Shown here: positions 1,634 through 28,483 of the stretch, piece after piece | How positions within the stretch are numbered: position 1 is the stretch's first letter | How the letters are laid out: every line of letters starts with the position of its first letter | Origin: a virus | Taxonomy: Duplodnaviria > Caudoviricetes | Length of the DNA: 30,175 nucleotides | Strand: one strand, 5' to 3' | Virus record (IMG/VR): IMGVR_UViG_3300037782_000107 | Coordinates: 1 to 30,175 of that record | Made by a program: the position numbers and the translations under genes | Notes under the pieces: generated by a model | Database searches by the model: none | What the model saw: only the letters and a program-made list of their open reading frames with translations | Told to the model about the DNA's origin: nothing

Positions 1634-3366
1634 CGTTTCTTCACTCCCAGGTCTTGCTCGATCATCTCGACGTCGGGGTCACCCCACGCCTTGAGCATCG
1701 CGAACTGTGCTGCGTCCGCGCCGTGACTCGACGCGTCGCGCTTGTTGGGCTTCGGGCGTCCGGCCTTCAGCGAGCTCGGGGACCAGTGGTAGCCCTCGAA
1801 GCACTCGACCAGGCTCGGCCGATTCGGGTGGTGTCGGATCGCGCACGACGGCGAGAAGAAGACCTTCCCGTGCTTGATGTTCAGCCGCATCGCCTGGATC
1901 GACCCTGCCGAGTAGGCGATGCCCTCGACGTCGATGCCGTAGCGCGCCAGGTTCTCGAACCAGCTCTCGGCCTCTTCCTGAGCGCGCCCGCCGTGCATCC
2001 GATTGCCGGAGAGGTTGCCGCTCATGTCGCCGACGCGGGCGTCGGGGTCGCGGCCTCCGGTGTTCGTTGCCGTCCACCACCCGGCCTCGGCAACGTCGTC
2101 CGCAATCTCGTCGACCTCTTCGAGCCCCCACGAGCGGTAGTCGACGAAGACGAGCATGTCCTGGTCGCGCGTCGACACGTGCGCGGCCCAGCAGACGAAC
2201 GTGGCCGACGGCCCGTTGCCGAAGTCCCACGCCTCGATCCACTCGACATTCGTTCGCCAGAGGAACGGCTCGACCGCGTCCTCCCACATCTCGTCGGAGT
2301 AGACGTGGAGGTCGCGGTCCATCTCCGGCCAACACCGGTCGGGCATCGACGCGTGGTAGTCGATCTCCTGCTCCTGCGCCCAGCTCTCCGCCGAGCGCCG
2401 CGCCTTCTCGCGCTTGCGCCACGCCTTGCCCTCGGGCGTCGACGGGTCCTTCGCTGGGTGCCGCGAGTAGTGCAGCCGGATGTGCAGCCAACCGATGCCC
2501 TTGCTCTCGTACGCGACACCCTCTTCGACCACGTCGCCGAGCTCGCCGTGGACGACCCGGGCGAAGTCGTTGTTGCGGCCCTGCACCGAGCTGATGAGCA
2601 CCTGCGCCGGCGTCACGTCGTTGATCGCGTCGAGCATCCGCTCGAGCAGGTCGATCGCCGCCGCCTCGTCCACGAGTACTCGCCGGAACCGGTGCTGGCG
2701 GAAGGCGTCGCCGACCGTGCTGCTGCCGAAGATCACACCGCCGTTCGACGGGTTCTTCAGCTGCATGTGCGTGTCGACGCGCCGGTTCCGCTTCGCCTCG
2801 CGCCAGCCGTCTGGACGCATCCAGGCTGGCTGGTGCTTGATCAGGTAGCGCAGGCGGCCGAAGAGGCTGACACCCTCCTGGTCGCCAACGTCGACGTCGC
2901 GCTCCATCCGAGCGAGGATGCCGAAGCTCTCGCCGTGGAACTGCCACTGCCAGACGATGCAGGCGAGCATCGTCCAGGTCGCGCCCATGTCGCGGCTCTT
3001 GTCGAGCGCGATCGGCCACAACTCGCCGTTGCTGTCGAGGTAGCGCTCGTCCTCGCCGAGGAACCAGCGTGCCACCTCGCGCTGGAAGTCCCAGAGCACG
3101 AACGGCAAGTGCCCTGGCTTGCGGTTCTTCCGCGGGTCGCGGGTCCAGGCGAAGTTGTCCGACCAGAAATCGAAGTCGCGCTTGCAGCGCCGGTGCACGT
3201 ACTCGCGAACGACCGGGTTCGCGTTGCATCCGTGGAGCACTCGGCGCCGCCGGACGCACTCTCGCCGCCACCAGCCGCGGAAGTCGGTGCCGCAGAAGCG
3301 CTCCGGCGTGAAGCTGAGCCGCGCGCGAACATCCGATCGCTCGAGCTCTCTCTGATGGTCGATCAC
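1612..3366 (-). CDS. terL: Terminase large subunit
   Basis: Walker A-like DKSRDMGAT, Walker B VLVDEAA, and an RNase H-like C-terminal domain (AWDFG ... SHGADAAQF). Confidence 0.95.
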   Translation of the reverse strand: MIDHQRELERSDVRARLSFTPERFCGTDFRGWWRRECVRRRRVLHGCNANPVVREYVHRRCKRDFDFWSDNFAWTRDPRKNRKPGHLPFVLWDFQREVARWFLGEDERYLDSNGELWPIALDKSRDMGATWTMLACIVWQWQFHGESFGILARMERDVDVGDQEGVSLFGRLRYLIKHQPAWMRPDGWREAKRNRRVDTHMQLKNPSNGGVIFGSSTVGDAFRQHRFRRVLVDEAAAIDLLERMLDAINDVTPAQVLISSVQGRNNDFARVVHGELGDVVEEGVAYESKGIGWLHIRLHYSRHPAKDPSTPEGKAWRKREKARRSAESWAQEQEIDYHASMPDRCWPEMDRDLHVYSDEMWEDAVEPFLWRTNVEWIEAWDFGNGPSATFVCWAAHVSTRDQDMLVFVDYRSWGLEEVDEIADDVAEAGWWTATNTGGRDPDARVGDMSGNLSGNRMHGGRAQEEAESWFENLARYGIDVEGIAYSAGSIQAMRLNIKHGKVFFSPSCAIRHHPNRPSLVECFEGYHWSPSSLKAGRPKPNKRDASSHGADAAQFAMLKAWGDPDVEMIEQDLGVKKRWQRQHT

Positions 3367-3791
3367 GCCGCAGCGTTCTCGGCCTCGATGAGCTCGAGAA
3401 TCGTGTCATCGTCCTGGTCCTCGAGCTCAGCGTCGTCGACCTTCTTGCGCTGCACGTCGTCGACCTGCATGGCGGCCTGTCGGTCGAGGCCCCGCCCGTA
3501 GAGCTCGGGCCACCGGCGCTCGAGCAGCCAGGCCTTCGCCACCCAGTCCTTGTTGCCTAACCAGATCGCCTCGAGAGCGCGGTGCTGGCACTCGGCCTCA
3601 GCCGTCTCCAGACGACTGAAGAACTCGCCGTAGACGCTGTCGGGGTCGGCCTGCCCCTTCCGCTTCCAGTTGTAGTAGGTCTGCTTGACGATCCCGACGC
3701 GTCGGCACGCCTGCTGGATCGGAAGGCCGTGCTCGATGTTCGAGCAGAGGTCCTCGATCATCTGCGTGGTCAGCTTCGTCTTGCGTCCCAT
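3363..3791 (-). CDS. terS: Terminase small subunit (HTH)
   Basis: MGRKTKLT start, HTH (QQACRRVGIVKQTYYNW) and AWLLERRWPELYG motif. ATGA-coupled to terL. Confidence 0.85.
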   Translation of the reverse strand: MGRKTKLTTQMIEDLCSNIEHGLPIQQACRRVGIVKQTYYNWKRKGQADPDSVYGEFFSRLETAEAECQHRALEAIWLGNKDWVAKAWLLERRWPELYGRGLDRQAAMQVDDVQRKKVDDAELEDQDDDTILELIEAENAAA

Positions 3792-16707: not shown

Positions 16708-16955
16708 GCTGCCGCCTCGAGGCCAGCGAGGAACGCGCGCCCTGCGTCGGTCGGGAGCCAGCAACGTGCGCCCCGGTGGTTGCGGTAGGCGTAGCCCATC
16801 TCGCCGAGCGAGATCGTTGCCGAGCGCGCCGCGCCGACCGACCGGTCGACGGCCTTGGCAATGTCGGCGAACGACGGCGGGCAGCCGTGCCGGTTGTGGT
16901 ACTCGACCAGCGCTCTGAGCACGGCCGTCTCAGTCGGATTCGGTGTCAGGGCCAT
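16704..16955 (-). CDS. Stand-alone LexA-like winged-helix DNA-binding domain (83 aa)
   Basis: TETAVLRALVEYHNRHGCPPSFADIAKAV...LGEMGYAYR matches the LexA N-terminal pattern. No peptidase domain. GGAGG RBS. Confidence 0.75.
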   Translation of the reverse strand: MALTPNPTETAVLRALVEYHNRHGCPPSFADIAKAVDRSVGAARSATISLGEMGYAYRNHRGARCWLPTDAGRAFLAGLEAAA

Positions 16956-18069
16956 CGGCCTCCTCCTTCCCCTCGTCCATCGGCATGATGACGTAGGCGA
17001 CTTCTGGGCGTGCGCTGTCGGTGACGTAGGTCGGCGAAGCCAGGCCCGCGACATCGAGCTTGACGTCGTCGCCCTCGATGACGGCGAGGACCTGGCGCAC
17101 GAATTTGTAGTTGTAGTAGAGGGCGAGCGGCGGGCTCTGCTCCGCGACACAGGGCACCGGGTCGACGAGCTCGCCGGAGACCTGGTCGGTCGAGAAGACC
17201 TCGAGCGTGCCGTCGCTGAGAGTCAGCCGGATTCGGTTCGACTTGCCCGCGAAGATGGCTGCCCGCTTCAGCGAAGCTGTGAGGCAGTCTCGGTTCACGA
17301 GCGCCGATGCGATCGGCTCGTGCCGGAAGATGTGGTCGCAGTCCGGGTAGCGCCCATGGATGAGCTGCACGACGATCCTCGTCTCCCCGGAGATGAAGAG
17401 CATGCGGTCGCCCTCGACACCCACGCCGACCACACCGTCGCCGCAGAGCAGACGCTGGAGCGCGGCCACGCCCTCTCGAGGAATGAGCGCGTCGATGTTC
17501 CCCCAGCTCTCCTCGGGCTGGGGACGCAGGGTCACCTGCGCGAAGCGCACCCGGTCGCTCGCGATCATGCGCAAGCTGCCGTCGAGGAGCTTGTGCAGCC
17601 ACGCGGCGCAGAACACGGCCTGGCTCTCGTCGCGGCCGATGAAGGGCGCCGTCTTCTCGAACATGTCGAGCAGCGTGGCGACGGCGATGCGGTGCGGCGC
17701 GTCGGGGTAGGTAGGCTCCTCCGGGAAGTCGCCCTGCTCGAGCTCGTTGACCTGGGCGTGTACCCGTGACTGGTCGATGACGAGCGCGCGCTTGAGCGAG
17801 TGGCACTCCACCGGCCCGGCCGGGCTCGACTTCACCGTCGAGAACACGCGCTTCAGGTCGACGACGACGCGGCCCGGCTTCTGGACGTCCGCCGCCACCT
17901 CGCGCCGCACCCAGACCACCAGGTCGGTCGCCTGCACGACGATGCGTCCGTCCTTGGTCGCGTCGATCTGGCAGCACGCCAGCACCGGCAGCGTGGCGCT
18001 GCTCTTCGTGACGACGCTCGCCGCGAAGAGGGCCTCGACGAATGCCTCTCGGTCGATCGTGAACTTCAC
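16930..18069 (-). CDS. dnaN: DNA polymerase III beta sliding clamp (phage-encoded)
   Basis: KFTIDRE, TLPVLA, ATDL, DFP, IASDRVRFA, LIPREGV, LIHGRYPD, YNYKFV and YVIMPM motifs. 379 aa from GTG 18069. Confidence 0.92.
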   Translation of the reverse strand: MKFTIDREAFVEALFAASVVTKSSATLPVLACCQIDATKDGRIVVQATDLVVWVRREVAADVQKPGRVVVDLKRVFSTVKSSPAGPVECHSLKRALVIDQSRVHAQVNELEQGDFPEEPTYPDAPHRIAVATLLDMFEKTAPFIGRDESQAVFCAAWLHKLLDGSLRMIASDRVRFAQVTLRPQPEESWGNIDALIPREGVAALQRLLCGDGVVGVGVEGDRMLFISGETRIVVQLIHGRYPDCDHIFRHEPIASALVNRDCLTASLKRAAIFAGKSNRIRLTLSDGTLEVFSTDQVSGELVDPVPCVAEQSPPLALYYNYKFVRQVLAVIEGDDVKLDVAGLASPTYVTDSARPEVAYVIMPMDEGKEEADGPDTESD

Positions 18070-19637: not shown

Positions 19638-19825
19638 GACTCCTCCAGCGCGCGCAACTCCTGACGCTCGACCCACTCCTCGACACTCTTCCGGCGGAAG
19701 CGCATCACACGCGACCCACCGGTGAATTTCGGCAGAGGATCGACGCGCCGGCGCGTCCAGGCCCGAACGGTGTTCTCCGAGACGTTGAGAAGCTCGGCGA
19801 CCTCCTTTGTCTTCATGATGTCCAT
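19634..19825 (-). CDS. xis: Excisionase (HTH_17)
   Basis: MKTKEVAELLNVSENTVRAW...MRFRRKSVEEWV, directly upstream of int. Confidence 0.85.
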   Translation of the reverse strand: MDIMKTKEVAELLNVSENTVRAWTRRRVDPLPKFTGGSRVMRFRRKSVEEWVERQELRALEES

Positions 19826-19853
19826 GCGCGCCACCGTGTCGGATGATGAGTTC

Positions 19854-19890
19854 ACCCTACGTGCGCGCCCTGTCGTCGGCAATGGTTTTT
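19854..19890 (-). promoter_or_regulatory. Putative sigma70-type promoter for xis-int
   Basis: TTGCCG (19882-19877), 17 nt, TAGGGT (19859-19854), with an A-tract upstream. Confidence 0.5.
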
Positions 19891-22132: not shown

Positions 22133-22429
22133 ATGAACGACGACAAGCTGTGGAAGATCGTGATGCTCGCCGGCGGCGGATTCTTCGTGATCTTCGTGAT
22201 CGTGGTCACCGCGCTCGGCAGCGGCAGCGGCGACGCGTACGAACCGACAACGAGGCACACGAAGCCGACGCCGAGAACCACAGCGCCGGCACCACAGCCC
22301 GCCTATCGAGCGCCGGTGCGGAAAGCAGCACCGACACCGACACCGGCGGTCAAGCGAAAGCCGAAGTGCAAGAAGGGGAAGCCGTGCGGCAACAGCTGCA
22401 TCGCTCGAGACAAGGTCTGCCACAAGTAG
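22133..22429 (+). CDS. Membrane-anchored protein with Pro/Thr linker and C-terminal CKKGKPCGNSCIARDKVCHK motif
   Basis: One hydrophobic TM segment and a four-Cys motif. Starts 3 nt after the lipoprotein stop. Confidence 0.8.
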   Translation: MNDDKLWKIVMLAGGGFFVIFVIVVTALGSGSGDAYEPTTRHTKPTPRTTAPAPQPAYRAPVRKAAPTPTPAVKRKPKCKKGKPCGNSCIARDKVCHK

Positions 22430-22430
22430 G

Positions 22431-22646
22431 TCAGCCGCCCCACAGCTCCTCGAGCCCCTTCATGTGCAGCTCGCACCCGAGGCGCTCGGCGCCGAGCTCG
22501 GCCACCGCGACGATGACGTCCATGGCGTCGACGAGGCACACGTCGGGCTCGCGTGCGGCCTCGGCCTGGTCGAGCTGCTCGATGGCGCGCGCGAGGTTGG
22601 CGTAGGCGTGGCGGGCGGATGCGATGGCTTCGGCTGCGTGCGACAT
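22431..22646 (-). CDS. Small helical hypothetical protein (71 aa)
   Basis: GGAGGT RBS and GC-rich third positions. Confidence 0.65.
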   Translation of the reverse strand: MSHAAEAIASARHAYANLARAIEQLDQAEAAREPDVCLVDAMDVIVAVAELGAERLGCELHMKGLEELWGG

Positions 22647-22715
22647 GACGACCTCCGTTGTGGGTGACGGAGGGTTATCGGCAGGTCGGGCGCCCGCGTT
22701 TAGCGAAATCGACCC

Positions 22716-22834
22716 GGACAGTACTTGTCCGACACCAGTGCGTAGGCTCGACGGTCCGACGCCACGAAGTCGGACAAAGCCTGTCCAACTCGATCACGGT
22801 CGCTTGACGCGGGGAGGTGATGCCCCTCTATCGT
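22716..22834. promoter_or_regulatory. Two GGACA-N5-TGTCC palindromes (22716-22730, 22772-22786) and a possible plus-strand promoter TTGACG-19-TATCGT
   Basis: Seen directly in the divergent intergenic region upstream of the accessory cassette. Confidence 0.5.
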
Positions 22835-22869
22835 CTCAAGTTCGGACAGACGACTGCACGGAGGGGAGG

Positions 22870-23781
22870 ATGGGTATCGACGACCACGCGAGGTACTTGC
22901 TCGCGAATCGAGGCGAACCACATCTAGGGCCGGACCCGATCGACAAGCTCGCCGAACTTGATTCGGAAGAGGCCGGCCGGCTCAGGGTCGAGTACGATTC
23001 AGCGACGCGGCGCACTGTGCTGTTTGAGCTGCCAACGCTCGGTGCCGTGCCCCCGGCGTTCTCCGTTTCTCTGGAGGACAACCAATCCGGCGTTCTCGCA
23101 GCAGCGATAAGGCCGGGCGTCGTGCTTCTCGATGTACAGATCACAAGGAAGATCAACGGATCGTGGAACGGCGAGCGGACCACGATCTACCAGCCGACCA
23201 CGAAGTCGTGTCTCGTCCTTCAGGACTCGCCCACAGTCCTCATCGTCAACGCCTCTGCTAGAGAGGCCCGCAGAGTCGCAAGCGAATGCGCGCGATGGCT
23301 GTATCGAAAACAACCGAAGGATAACATTCGTGTTTTCCACGGTAGCGAGCTGATCCGGCCGGTCGCCATTCGGGATCGACACGTTCAAGCCGTCGTCGAA
23401 AAACTGAGCGCGAGATGGATCGATGTCGATGGGCCCAGCGCCGACGAGAGATATGGCCATCAACGGTTCCGAGCACGTCTCAACGCCACAACGCGGCGAC
23501 ACGAAGGCCTGAAACTTGAAGACGATCCAGCAAAGCGACAGCTTGAGGCCGGCGCGAATGATCGGCTGGCTGTATCGTTCGAACTTGTGCATGCAGACGG
23601 ATACGCCGAGCATGTCGAAGAGGTGCTCTTCCACCTCAGCGACACCAACGCATGCTTTGAACTGTTCGGCTCTGCGAGTCGAACCGCCCGAGACGTGGTC
23701 TTGGGCACCATCAGGGAGGTGTGCCTTGGAGCTTCAACTGGTCGAGAGACTTCGCGTACTTCTCCACTGCCATTTCGCTGA
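22870..23781 (+). CDS. Accessory cassette gene A, unknown alpha/beta protein (303 aa)
   Basis: Strong GGAGGGGAGG RBS before ATG 22870. More A/T-ending codons than the core genes. Confidence 0.8.
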   Translation: MGIDDHARYLLANRGEPHLGPDPIDKLAELDSEEAGRLRVEYDSATRRTVLFELPTLGAVPPAFSVSLEDNQSGVLAAAIRPGVVLLDVQITRKINGSWNGERTTIYQPTTKSCLVLQDSPTVLIVNASAREARRVASECARWLYRKQPKDNIRVFHGSELIRPVAIRDRHVQAVVEKLSARWIDVDGPSADERYGHQRFRARLNATTRRHEGLKLEDDPAKRQLEAGANDRLAVSFELVHADGYAEHVEEVLFHLSDTNACFELFGSASRTARDVVLGTIREVCLGASTGRETSRTSPLPFR

Positions 23782-24136
23782 GTTCGCCTCGGCGGTGCTG
23801 TACTACTCTGGATGGGCGAGCGCGAAACTCGAGGTCGATGAGCGAACCGTGATCGATGCGGCGCGTCCACTCGAAGGCGCGGGGCTAATCGTCTTGGGCC
23901 TCGAAGCACAGTGCGACGCATGCCGGCAGGTGGCCTGGTTCGGTGGTGCCGATCAGTTCCCGCAGGACACCACCGGCCTAACCTGTCGTCGTTGCTCCGA
24001 GCCGTTCGAGTTGGACGGCTGGGAGTTCCGAGCGAGCTTCTCGATCACCCCAGAATGGCGAGCCGCGGTCGAGCAGATTCGAGAAGCGGGAAACCGCCGG
24101 AGGGGGCTGAGCGCCGATGTCCCCCTGATTCACTGA
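23726..24136 (+). CDS. Accessory cassette gene B, wHTH-like plus Zn-ribbon protein (136 aa)
   Basis: TTG 23726 follows AGGGAGG. WASAKLEVDERTVIDAARPLEGAGLI helix-turn-helix/wing, and CDAC...CRRC. Confidence 0.78.
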   Translation: MELQLVERLRVLLHCHFAEFASAVLYYSGWASAKLEVDERTVIDAARPLEGAGLIVLGLEAQCDACRQVAWFGGADQFPQDTTGLTCRRCSEPFELDGWEFRASFSITPEWRAAVEQIREAGNRRRGLSADVPLIH

Positions 24137-24148
24137 GTCTCCCGGCGC
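24088..24148 (+). promoter_or_regulatory. Predicted -1 programmed ribosomal frameshift signal
   Basis: G_GGA_AAC in frame with gene B, a 6-nt spacer, stem 1 AGGGGG/CCCCCT and stem 2 GCGCCG/CGGCGC. The -1 frame is open to 24591. Confidence 0.75.
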
Positions 24149-24591
24149 CTCCGCCCCCCACCGACCCTAGCTTGGTGATCCACGTGACGAACAACCACAT
24201 CACGATCGACCGCTCCACAGGCGTTGCGATCAACAACGATAGCCCGGGTGCGAGCATTGTTCAGACGCTCGCACCGGACGAGGACGGCAAGTTCGCGAAG
24301 GAGGGTCTCGAACAGCTGTTTGGTCAAATCGCGCTCATGGCAGCGAAACAGGACGAGTACGCAAACGCGCAGGCCGCGATGTTCGTCAGGCTCCTCGACC
24401 AACACGACGAAACCCAGCTCGGTGTGGCAGACATCGTCGCGCTTGTGGAGCCTGCATGGATTAAACTCACGGCGAAGCAGTTCCAGGCGGACCCTGCGAT
24501 GGCAAAGGCTGCCGCTGCCTGGCTCGCTGACAAGTTCGCTGAGATGGGTCTCGTTGAGTTGGTGAAAGCACTCCCGGCCTTGGCTGGTTGA
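24094..24591 (+). CDS. Accessory cassette ORF C, probably expressed as a B-C transframe fusion (~288 aa); alternative own start TTG 24172 or GTG 24175
   Basis: Pro-rich linker, Asn-rich beta segment and helical domain with an amphipathic end. No Shine-Dalgarno before 24172/24175. Confidence 0.75.
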   Translation, partial: PPEGAERRCPPDSLSLPAPPPPTDPSLVIHVTNNHITIDRSTGVAINNDSPGASIVQTLAPDEDGKFAKEGLEQLFGQIALMAAKQDEYANAQAAMFVRLLDQHDETQLGVADIVALVEPAWIKLTAKQFQADPAMAKAAAAWLADKFAEMGLVELVKALPALAG

Positions 24592-24643
24592 CGACTGGCT
24601 CAGAGGCATGTCACGGCGCGCCGCGGGCCTCGTCGCAGACGGT

Positions 24644-24745
24644 GGAGCGGTGGCTGAGTGGCAAGGCGCCATTGGATCGGCGACCGGGGCTGGCGACCGG
24701 AACACGGCTGACGAGCCGACGCAGGTTCGAGTCCTGCCCGGTCCA
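24644..24745 (+). tRNA. tRNA-like element or pseudo-tRNA (class II, Ser/Leu-like body); anticodon not assignable
   Basis: Acceptor GGAGCGG/CCGGTCC (one G-G mismatch), D arm TGGCTGAGTGGCAAGGC, variable arm CGGCT-GACG-AGCCG and perfect T arm GCAGG-TTCGAGT-CCTGC. The anticodon region is about 36 nt. Ends ACTA, not ACCA. Confidence 0.6.
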
Positions 24746-25480
24746 CTACCCGCGCCAGCGAATCAGGTCCATGTCGAGGGCGGCGTTGACGTCGATGCTC
24801 CCGCGCGCCCACTTCGGCCGCCAGCTCGACGTCCACTGCCAGACGTCCCAGCCCTCGATGCGTGGGCCGCGCTCGATCTGCGCGACGGCGAGGCGATGGA
24901 ACTCGGCGAGCGGACGACCCTTTGTTGTCGGGTAGCGCGCCGACCAGCGGAACAGCTCCCGCTCGACGAACTCGACCTCGAGGCCGAGCGCCTGGGCGAT
25001 GATGCGGCATACTCGCGCGAGGTCGACCTTGCCGTTGCGGGCGAGCTTCCCGATGTAGATGCCGGGCAGGATGCCGAGCGCGTCGTACACCCGCACGACC
25101 CAGGAGGAGATCCAAAGCTCGTCATCGAACGAGTCGCCGGTCTCGCGCTCGTAGTCGAGCACGGGGCGCAGGCCTCGCGCGTCGATGTCGTCGAGCTCGC
25201 GCAGCAGCACCTCCGCCTCGATGTCCGGGTCGTCGGGGTAGTCGCTCGGGACGGCGAAGTGGTAGACGCCGACGTCGGCGATGCCCGCCTCTTCGAGGCC
25301 GCGGGCGTGTTCGCTGGCGAGCTTCGCGCCGAGCCCTCGAGGGTCGTTGCCCTGGCTCACCTTGATCCAGGCGAAACGCACGCCGTCGAGGGGGATCGCG
25401 TCGTAGTCGAGGCGCTTGTTCCAGCCGCTGAGGTCGATGCCCGGCACGCAGCCCGGCAGGTGGATGAGTGGCTCGCTCAC
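24746..25480 (-). CDS. Endolysin, GH25 muramidase
   Basis: GIDLSGWN, FAWIKVSQG, GVYHF, PVLDYE, VWQWTS and IDVN motifs. Confidence 0.93.
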   Translation of the reverse strand: MSEPLIHLPGCVPGIDLSGWNKRLDYDAIPLDGVRFAWIKVSQGNDPRGLGAKLASEHARGLEEAGIADVGVYHFAVPSDYPDDPDIEAEVLLRELDDIDARGLRPVLDYERETGDSFDDELWISSWVVRVYDALGILPGIYIGKLARNGKVDLARVCRIIAQALGLEVEFVERELFRWSARYPTTKGRPLAEFHRLAVAQIERGPRIEGWDVWQWTSSWRPKWARGSIDVNAALDMDLIRWRG

Positions 25481-27731: not shown

Positions 27732-28483
27732 CCAAAACCCCCGGGGCCCTGCGAGTAGATCTGCTCGGCGTACGCGCTCCAGTCCTCCGTGCCGAACGCG
27801 GCCTCGTACACGATCCCATTGAGCGCGAACGTTGGTGTCGCCACCTGGGTGTCGCCGAGCCGCATCGCGTGCGTGGCGTTGCCCGTCGCGACGGCGAGTG
27901 CGGCAGCGGAGTCTACCTCGACACCATCAAACGCCAGGCGAGCCGTGACCCCGTCGCAGGTCAGTAGCGCGTGGTGAATCTGGCCCACCGTGACAGCGTT
28001 CGGATCGGTGTTGAGGCGCACGATCTGAGGCGCGACGCCTCGCACGATCTGGGCGCTCAGCATCCGATCCCCGAGCTCGGAGAAGTCGTCGTCGACGAAT
28101 ACCGAGGTGCCTTTGGTTGCGGCGCCGAGCGCGTTGCCTGCTACCACCTCCAGCGCGTCCGCCTCGGCTGGACCCGCCCACTCGAAGAACAACGACTGGC
28201 TGAACACCTGCGTCTGGTGCTGGTAGTTGAACGTCGAGGCCGTCCCGAGCGTGGTCCACTGCGTGGCCCCGTCGTAGATCACGCCAGGCGGATCCGTCGC
28301 GATCGACGGGTCGCCCGTGTGCACCCCGTTGACGACCCCGGCGATCTCCTCGGGCCACCCGCCGACCGTGGGATTGCGGTACAGGTAGGTGAGGCCCGGC
28401 AGCCCGAGGACGACGTCGACGTCTCGGCGGCGTCGATCGCGGCCCGGAGGCCGCGGCGGGCGCGCTGGTCGCGGTGGCCTCAC
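27728..28483 (-). CDS. LamG/concanavalin A-like beta-sandwich protein, probable tail/receptor-binding component
   Basis: IHHALLTCDGVTARLAFDGVEV and MRLG...LNGIVYEAAF patterns. GTG 28483 is coupled to the upstream stop. Confidence 0.72.
   Translation of the reverse strand: MRPPRPARPPRPPGRDRRRRDVDVVLGLPGLTYLYRNPTVGGWPEEIAGVVNGVHTGDPSIATDPPGVIYDGATQWTTLGTASTFNYQHQTQVFSQSLFFEWAGPAEADALEVVAGNALGAATKGTSVFVDDDFSELGDRMLSAQIVRGVAPQIVRLNTDPNAVTVGQIHHALLTCDGVTARLAFDGVEVDSAAALAVATGNATHAMRLGDTQVATPTFALNGIVYEAAFGTEDWSAYAEQIYSQGPGGFG

Follow-up and report, generated by a model that had tools for sequence, protein, structure and literature searches.

A predicted -1 frameshift signal, G_GGA_AAC, at the end of a probable accessory gene in a tailed phage from pond metagenomes

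The described systems closest to the locus analysed here are the lambda-type G/GT tail chaperones, the -1 shifts of Escherichia coli dnaX, the IS3 family and cro of Lactobacillus phage A2, and the elements of eukaryotic viruses such as SARS. As set out in the available excerpts of PMC5009743, the g-t shift site of halovirus HCTV-1 is G_GGA_AAC, and this heptamer ranks among the shiftiest on mammalian ribosomes; in E. coli, A_AAG sites are shift-prone and AAC is weaker. IS elements use stem-loops as well as pseudoknots, and in the SARS element a stem-loop is described within loop 3 (PMC5009743, excerpts). Hypotheticals account for 79 of 2,476 annotated joined phage genes, and the precision of motif-only tools is low (PMC10274946, excerpts).

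The locus compared with these systems is a G_GGA_AAC heptamer near the end of a small phage gene, B. It is likely a site of programmed -1 frameshifting at which both B and a B-C fusion would be made. An earlier note on this DNA had called the non-structural context unusual. The place is uncommon; it is less unusual than claimed, since a -1 shift in a non-structural phage gene, cro of phage A2, has been published (PMC5009743, excerpts).

The phage and its A-B-C cassette

The window, meaning the whole stretch of DNA that was analysed, is an entire virus record of 30,175 bases (IMGVR_UViG_3300037782_000107), 41% complete and present in pond metagenomes. Family scans of 40 hand-picked ORFs indicate a temperate tailed phage. 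On the minus strand they place a terminase small subunit, a portal-like gene, a VapE-type primase/helicase, helicases, a methyltransferase, a Cas4-like nuclease, Sak4, a beta clamp, an integrase, an anti-repressor and a GH25 endolysin. The clamp (16933-18069, minus strand) is of the DNA polymerase III type; it passes the TIGR00663 cut-off and shares 22-28% identity with the bacterial clamps tested. A 576-aa ORF (1682-3409, minus strand) lies between the small terminase and the portal, the position of a terminase large subunit, and has no Pfam or PHROG match at E 0.01. A direct repeat of ~16 bases at about 19810-19850, between integrase and anti-repressor on the minus strand and after a heptamer match at 19886, is possibly an operator or attachment-site sequence.

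A plus-strand block lies between the anti-repressor region and the endolysin, with A, B and C at its end, oriented opposite to the lytic genes. The neighbours are a tRNA-like element and the opposite-strand GH25 endolysin on one side and the immunity region on the other. The tRNA-like element (24644-24745, plus strand), just 3' of C, scores 33.7 bits against the Rfam tRNA model (gathering 29); its D and T arms are clear, its anticodon region is enlarged and its extra arm long, and there is no ARAGORN call. A programmed -1 frameshift probably operates here, within an accessory cassette made up of the three genes A, B and C in a temperate phage. The features are as follows.

22870-23781, plus strand: gene A, a 303-aa orphan (P0002 of the gene caller, likewise 303 aa), starting at an ATG with a Shine-Dalgarno (SD) sequence of -10.0 kcal/mol
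23713-23721, plus strand: SD of gene B, -12.3 kcal/mol, joint strongest among 33 frames
23726-24136, plus strand: gene B, zero frame, from TTG at 23726 to TGA at 24134-24136; 136 aa, about 15.2 kDa
24088-24094, plus strand: slippery heptamer G_GGA_AAC, in frame, Gly-Asn at codons 122-123 of B
24094-24171, plus strand: Pro-rich linker in the -1 frame, 26 codons, codon score -0.39, overlapping the RNA structure
24095-24100, plus strand: spacer CGCCGG, 6 nt
24101-24148, plus strand: predicted H-type pseudoknot, stem 1 at 24101-24106/24121-24126 and stem 2 at 24111-24116/24143-24148
24102-24158, plus strand: competing long stem-loop, in which the G run pairs with 24153-24158, stem 2 is shared and extended, and the loop-3 hairpin is kept
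24159-24177, plus strand: predicted hairpin pairing the candidate C starts TTG 24172 and GTG 24175, pairing probability 0.99 at 24174-24177
24172-24591, plus strand: domain C in the -1 frame, codon score +0.47, best SD -2.8, orphan

Gene A is predicted, with low confidence, to consist of repeated alpha/beta domains (single-sequence AF2 model, mean pLDDT 52, best fold-match Z 6.1). Its Atlas matches are unnamed proteins of 304-356 aa; one row (rank 8, score 0.91) carries GAPS4b_N on 23% of members, with a recognition value of 1821, below the tool's mark of 2300. The 3' end of A and the 5' end of B share 56 nt (23726-23781). The strong SD of B sits within gene A, and the B frame is open from about 23513. 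The gene caller reported only a 113-aa piece of B and missed the predicted 288-aa product.

The B protein has a helical N-terminal part followed by a CxxC-x19-CxxC zinc-ribbon-like motif; it matches Zn_ribbon_4 weakly, below cut-off strength (E 0.0036). Its single-sequence AF2 model has a pLDDT of 50 and a best fold-match Z of 3.7, and neither the A nor the B model gave a clear fold match or a Foldseek E under 0.001. In the four Atlas rows shown, the look-alikes of B are unnamed stand-alone proteins of 125-149 aa (score 0.93), and one Atlas cluster near B carries DUF5939 on 14%. In a search with a profile built from 9 DUF5939 N-domains, B ranks first of 502 with a 73-residue collinear alignment that includes all four Cys, though it scores 8.6 bits where the best shuffle reaches 7.0; the Pfam DUF5939 model (PF19363) gives no match. 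By sequence, then, B weakly resembles DUF5939-type zinc-ribbon N-terminal domains. Such N-domains sit in open frames of 385-1080 aa at 9 of 9 loci found.

Domain C consists of an Asn/Ile/Thr-rich beta-type stretch and then an acidic Ala-rich domain, the latter likely helical judging from the sequence. No strong transmembrane segment is present (top 19-residue hydropathy 1.35).

Searches for relatives of the cassette returned essentially the query itself. In a set of 5.8 billion proteins, the near-length search with B kept 1 of 55 candidates and the search with A 1 of 4727, each time the query, and longer forms of B gave 0 of 1553; a full HMMER scan of 1.84 billion representatives with B found itself alone. 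Viral contigs contained no relatives of A, B or C (the endolysin and beta clamp were also searched, and nothing was found), and C had 0 of 106 in genome contigs. In tblastn against phages and plasmids, A and C had no match, and B drew 2 and 3 records with E values of 0.5 and 0.1. In samples of 201 genomes per phylum, the matches were weak (B 0, 4 and 1; A 3, 0 and 0; C 2). The 10 phylum-sample loci, compared with A, B and C, were set aside as chance (short, with internal stops, or in unrelated genes). The sole metagenome-scan locus for B was likewise rejected as spurious, being 41 residues with a stop soon after on an unrelated contig. The 80 phage loci centred on phrog_5120, the family of a neighbouring gene, contained no cassette relative and one A match at E 0.044. 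PADLOC, NCBIfam, PHROGs and PDB sequence searches yielded nothing useful for the cassette.

The shift site and its downstream RNA folds

The heptamer GGGAAAC at 24088-24094 lies in the X_XXY_YYZ phase of B, as the earlier note had read it, base for base. Its account of the frames also holds: the zero frame ends at 24136, 13 codons past the site, and the -1 frame, open from 23842, runs to the stop at 24591, with 165 codons read in that frame after the site. The predicted products of 136 aa and about 288 aa are both borne out, the transframe product being 288 aa exactly. The junction peptide proposed earlier (…EAGN/KPPEGAER) agrees around the site and needs correcting at the junction itself, where the residue is Asn after a tandem slip or Lys after a single-tRNA slip, not both together; Pro-Pro-Glu-Gly follows directly. 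No SD-like stimulator was found upstream of the heptamer (best -3.0).

Downstream, the spacer and both stems are where the earlier note had placed them. Each stem is a perfect 6-bp Watson-Crick helix, and the loops are 4, 4 and 16 nt. A de novo search for H-type pseudoknots with free stem and loop lengths returned exactly this structure as its best hit, with a stacking sum of -29.7 kcal/mol; pseudoknot scores here add up the stacking energies of the stems and leave loop penalties aside. Within loop 3, a weak 5-bp hairpin (24127-24139, -1.4 kcal/mol alone) that contains the stop codon of B is possible.

The designation as an H-type pseudoknot stands in respect of its two perfect stems and needs qualifying in another, since it is one of two competing folds and the nested long stem-loop is a strong competitor. 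The stem-loop has an energy of -28.9 from 24101 and of -32.8 over 24095-24165 (z -2.42, matched in 3 of 200 shuffles), and 87 of 2000 random 60-mers fold equally well. Once loop penalties are counted, the nested stem-loop might prove the more stable of the two. Because both folds start 6-7 nt past the heptamer, a shift could be stimulated by one or the other. Rfam frameshift elements gave no match here.

How often such a signal arises by chance can be estimated in several ways. Among 1500 positions drawn at random from this GC-rich genome, 10 had a pseudoknot score as good or better, as did 5 of 600 composition shuffles. The window contains 15 heptamers of X_XXY_YYZ form on both strands together, and 3 in-frame heptamers occur among 33 hand-picked genes of this genome. 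The chance of an in-frame heptamer is 0.024 in the 98-codon overlap and about 0.005 in the last 20 codons. In a control set of 80 other phage loci around the neighbouring phrog_5120 gene (933,793 bases, 62% GC), similar frame geometry was found at 18 of 1740 heptamers, none of the 18 with a structure as strong as here (best pseudoknot -24.4, best hairpin -23.6). The chance rate is raised by the way the site was chosen, from a very large number of stretches of DNA.

A second heptamer of the same genome, G_GGU_UUU at 27734-27740 on the minus strand, is in frame at the end of a Laminin-G-like gene, and a -1 shift there would lead into the reading frame of the esterase-like gene that follows (265 codons). 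The heptamer overlaps the SD of the esterase-like gene, its pseudoknot score is just -13.8, and it is probably due to chance. Since this heptamer, too, opens into the next gene's frame, a heptamer by itself is weak evidence.

Coding signal, assembly support and competing explanations

The coding signal changes frame at about the site. In a codon model built from 4963 codons of this phage, C scores +0.47, B before the heptamer +0.08, the -1 frame upstream of the heptamer -0.71 and the linker -0.39, and the best-scoring frame switches between about 24090 and 24130. These scores indicate that C is coding and that the frame changes near the heptamer. The question is then how ribosomes reach C.

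The earlier claim that C has no SD is upheld. No ATG, GTG or TTG in 23842-24337 has an SD better than -2.8, a value that ties for the weakest among 33 frames; of the 32 other frames, 29 reach -5 or better in a comparison that took the best start in the 5' half of each frame and so favours long genes. Independent initiation of C has in its favour that 3 of the 32 other frames are also weaker than -5. In that account, C would be a gene of its own, begun without an SD at 24172/24175 or else from CTG 24316, and the signal at the end of B would be due to chance or would control the translation of C. The poor codons of the linker and the strong coding signal from near the candidate starts fit it, as does the strong SD (-12.2) ahead of CTG 24316, inside C, from which the product would be 91 aa. 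Against this, the sequence upstream of the candidate starts is C-rich and lacks an SD, the starts are predicted to be paired, and the stop of B is 36 nt away, leaving no start-stop overlap; a start at CTG 24316 leaves the well-scoring stretch 24180-24315 unexplained, and an in-frame heptamer would fall in the last 20 codons of B by chance only with the low frequency given above. Overall, a separate C is improbable.

A second group of explanations holds that B and C form, or recently formed, a single frame. An insertion anywhere in 23842-24133 could fuse them, and contigs bear on this directly. Over 22400-25000 the X1 contig (11,222 bases, depth 9.88) shows no difference from the window, though it may be the window's own source. 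The X2 (23668-23951), X4 (23866-24121) and X5 (24155-24485) contigs are all free of gaps. Contigs of other samples thus span most of the overlap without an indel, which speaks against the possibility raised earlier that B-C is one ORF split by an assembly indel, and assembly error across B-C is unlikely. What speaks for it is confined to a short stretch: bases 24122-24133, including a C5 run, are covered by X1 alone, and the X4 contig reaches only 27 bases beyond the heptamer where the tool requires 31 to count a contig as bridging. That the true genome is one base longer and B-C a single ORF is very improbable.

A genuine loss of a base is harder to set aside, while still unlikely. B-C would have been a single gene until, recently, a base dropped out of one of its short G or C runs; slippage would perhaps rescue the broken gene in part, and the signal would be incidental. 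Indels compensated by slippery sites do occur, which lends this account support (PMC10986495, excerpts). The region contains G5, C5 and C6 runs, a Pro-rich linker is typical of fused two-domain proteins, the DUF5939-type domains that B weakly resembles head long proteins, and C has no start of its own. Yet a broken gene leaves unexplained why a canonical heptamer is in phase and why a structure in the top 1% follows it at the proper spacing. The proteins that resemble B in the Atlas stand alone and are close to it in size, and the split form is also present in other pond samples for 23842-24121, though these may represent one population.

Transcriptional slippage was considered and rejected, as no run exceeds 6 and there is no long A/T run. 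RNA runs X6 and X12, from one study, gave contigs on A, on the A/B overlap and on C, none across the heptamer; these are the size of single reads and do not show transcription.

Programmed -1 frameshifting is therefore the best reading, given the phase of the heptamer, a strong, GC-rich predicted structure 6 nt downstream and the frame switch in the codon signal, together with the lack of a usable C start and the unlikelihood of an assembly indel. The earlier interpretation is retained on the strength of phase, structure and frame switch; its attribution of the stimulus to a pseudoknot is narrowed to one of two folds.

Under programmed frameshifting, ribosomes would load at the strong SD of B inside the end of gene A and pause at the pseudoknot or the long stem-loop. 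tRNA-Gly would shift its pairing from GGA onto GGG and tRNA-Asn from AAC onto AAA, and a fraction of ribosomes would slip back one base, bypass the stop at 24134 and read the Pro-rich linker and domain C. One mRNA would yield mostly the 136-aa zinc-ribbon-like B and a minority of the 288-aa B-C. By analogy with phage G/GT chaperones, the purpose is likely to keep B-C at a constant, low proportion relative to B; B would act as a docking or DNA/partner-binding module and C as a dose-limited add-on. A guess from position and strand, possible but doubtful, is that the A-B-C operon acts during lysogeny, in defence or in modifying the host. More specific, and quite unlikely, is the idea that the three genes are a prophage operon of a kind not yet described, for defence or control of the host, with a switch between pseudoknot and stem-loop setting how often the zinc-ribbon module is fused to an effector and frameshifting itself dosing or triggering the response.

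Comparison with described systems

Among defence and accessory systems, GAPS4 (the GAPS4a nuclease and GAPS4b ring) shares with the cassette a small accessory operon, and the one Atlas row for A with GAPS4b_N is a lead under the tool's mark. The HGxD-SxK motif of the PD-(D/E)xK subunit, given in the excerpts of PMC13748975, is absent from the A, B and C translations as read by eye, and the words 'frameshift' and 'zinc' do not occur in that paper's main text. For Bab/Agp-type amyloid pairs (bioRxiv 10.1101/2024.11.07.622273, excerpts), the beta stretch of C was compared with A alone and gave E 1.0 in BLAST, which is weak for such motifs. A literature search of partial coverage found no defence system using a programmed frameshift. 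With DUF5939 (PF19363), B shares the low-scoring collinear four-Cys alignment, whereas the DUF5939 loci found carry the domain in long frames.

The E. coli dnaX, IS3-family and A2 cro shifts have in common with the B site a -1 shift, a 3' stem-loop or pseudoknot and a non-virion gene (PMC5009743, excerpts). They differ in that the heptamer of B ends in AAC and not AAG and is not preceded by an SD-like stimulator; the shift at B lengthens the product, and the cassette has no transposase. The three-stem elements of eukaryotic viruses (SARS type) share G_GGA_AAC and a stem-loop in loop 3 (PMC5009743, excerpts), whereas here a dsDNA phage, bacterial ribosomes and a 4-nt inter-stem loop are involved.

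The lambda-type G/GT tail chaperone likewise has an X_XXY_YYZ heptamer at the end of a gene and makes a short protein and a C-terminally extended form; in HCTV-1 the heptamer is identical to that of B (PMC5009743, excerpts). Matches to a DNA pattern of heptamer plus G/C stem numbered 13 in viral contigs, where about 12 would be expected by chance, and 120 in genomes, likewise close to the number expected. None is related to A, B or C, and the pattern including stem 2 was found 0 times. Frame geometry is present in 9 of 124 genome matches, 2 of them in the L007 family described below. In all, 5 of the 13 viral and 2 genome matches occupy a tail-chaperone position.

Two apparent G/GT families with G_GGA_AAC and a G/C-rich hairpin emerge among these matches: L003, L010, L014 and L015 (site at about 1201-1240), and L007, L065 and L089. 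The L003 site lies behind a confirmed major tail gene and ahead of a gene read as tape measure; the tail-chaperone placement of L007 is our own reading, its PHROG label being head-tail adaptor. This suggests that signals built from a heptamer and a G/C stem are in use on bacterial ribosomes, and implies no kinship to B-C. The B site differs in not lying between major tail and tape measure genes, and B and C match no tail family. Tail-chaperone-type sites fold mainly as hairpins, whereas the stimulator of B can also form a two-stem pseudoknot.

Eukaryotic viruses and tail chaperones are where signals of this type are mainly known; if real, the site would place a pseudoknot-capable G_GGA_AAC frameshift in a phage accessory operon that does not code for virion parts. 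It would be a new instance of a known mechanism, its biological payoff uncertain. The element is compact, at about 70 nt, and its two folds could show how bacterial ribosomes respond to a pseudoknot as compared with a stem-loop.
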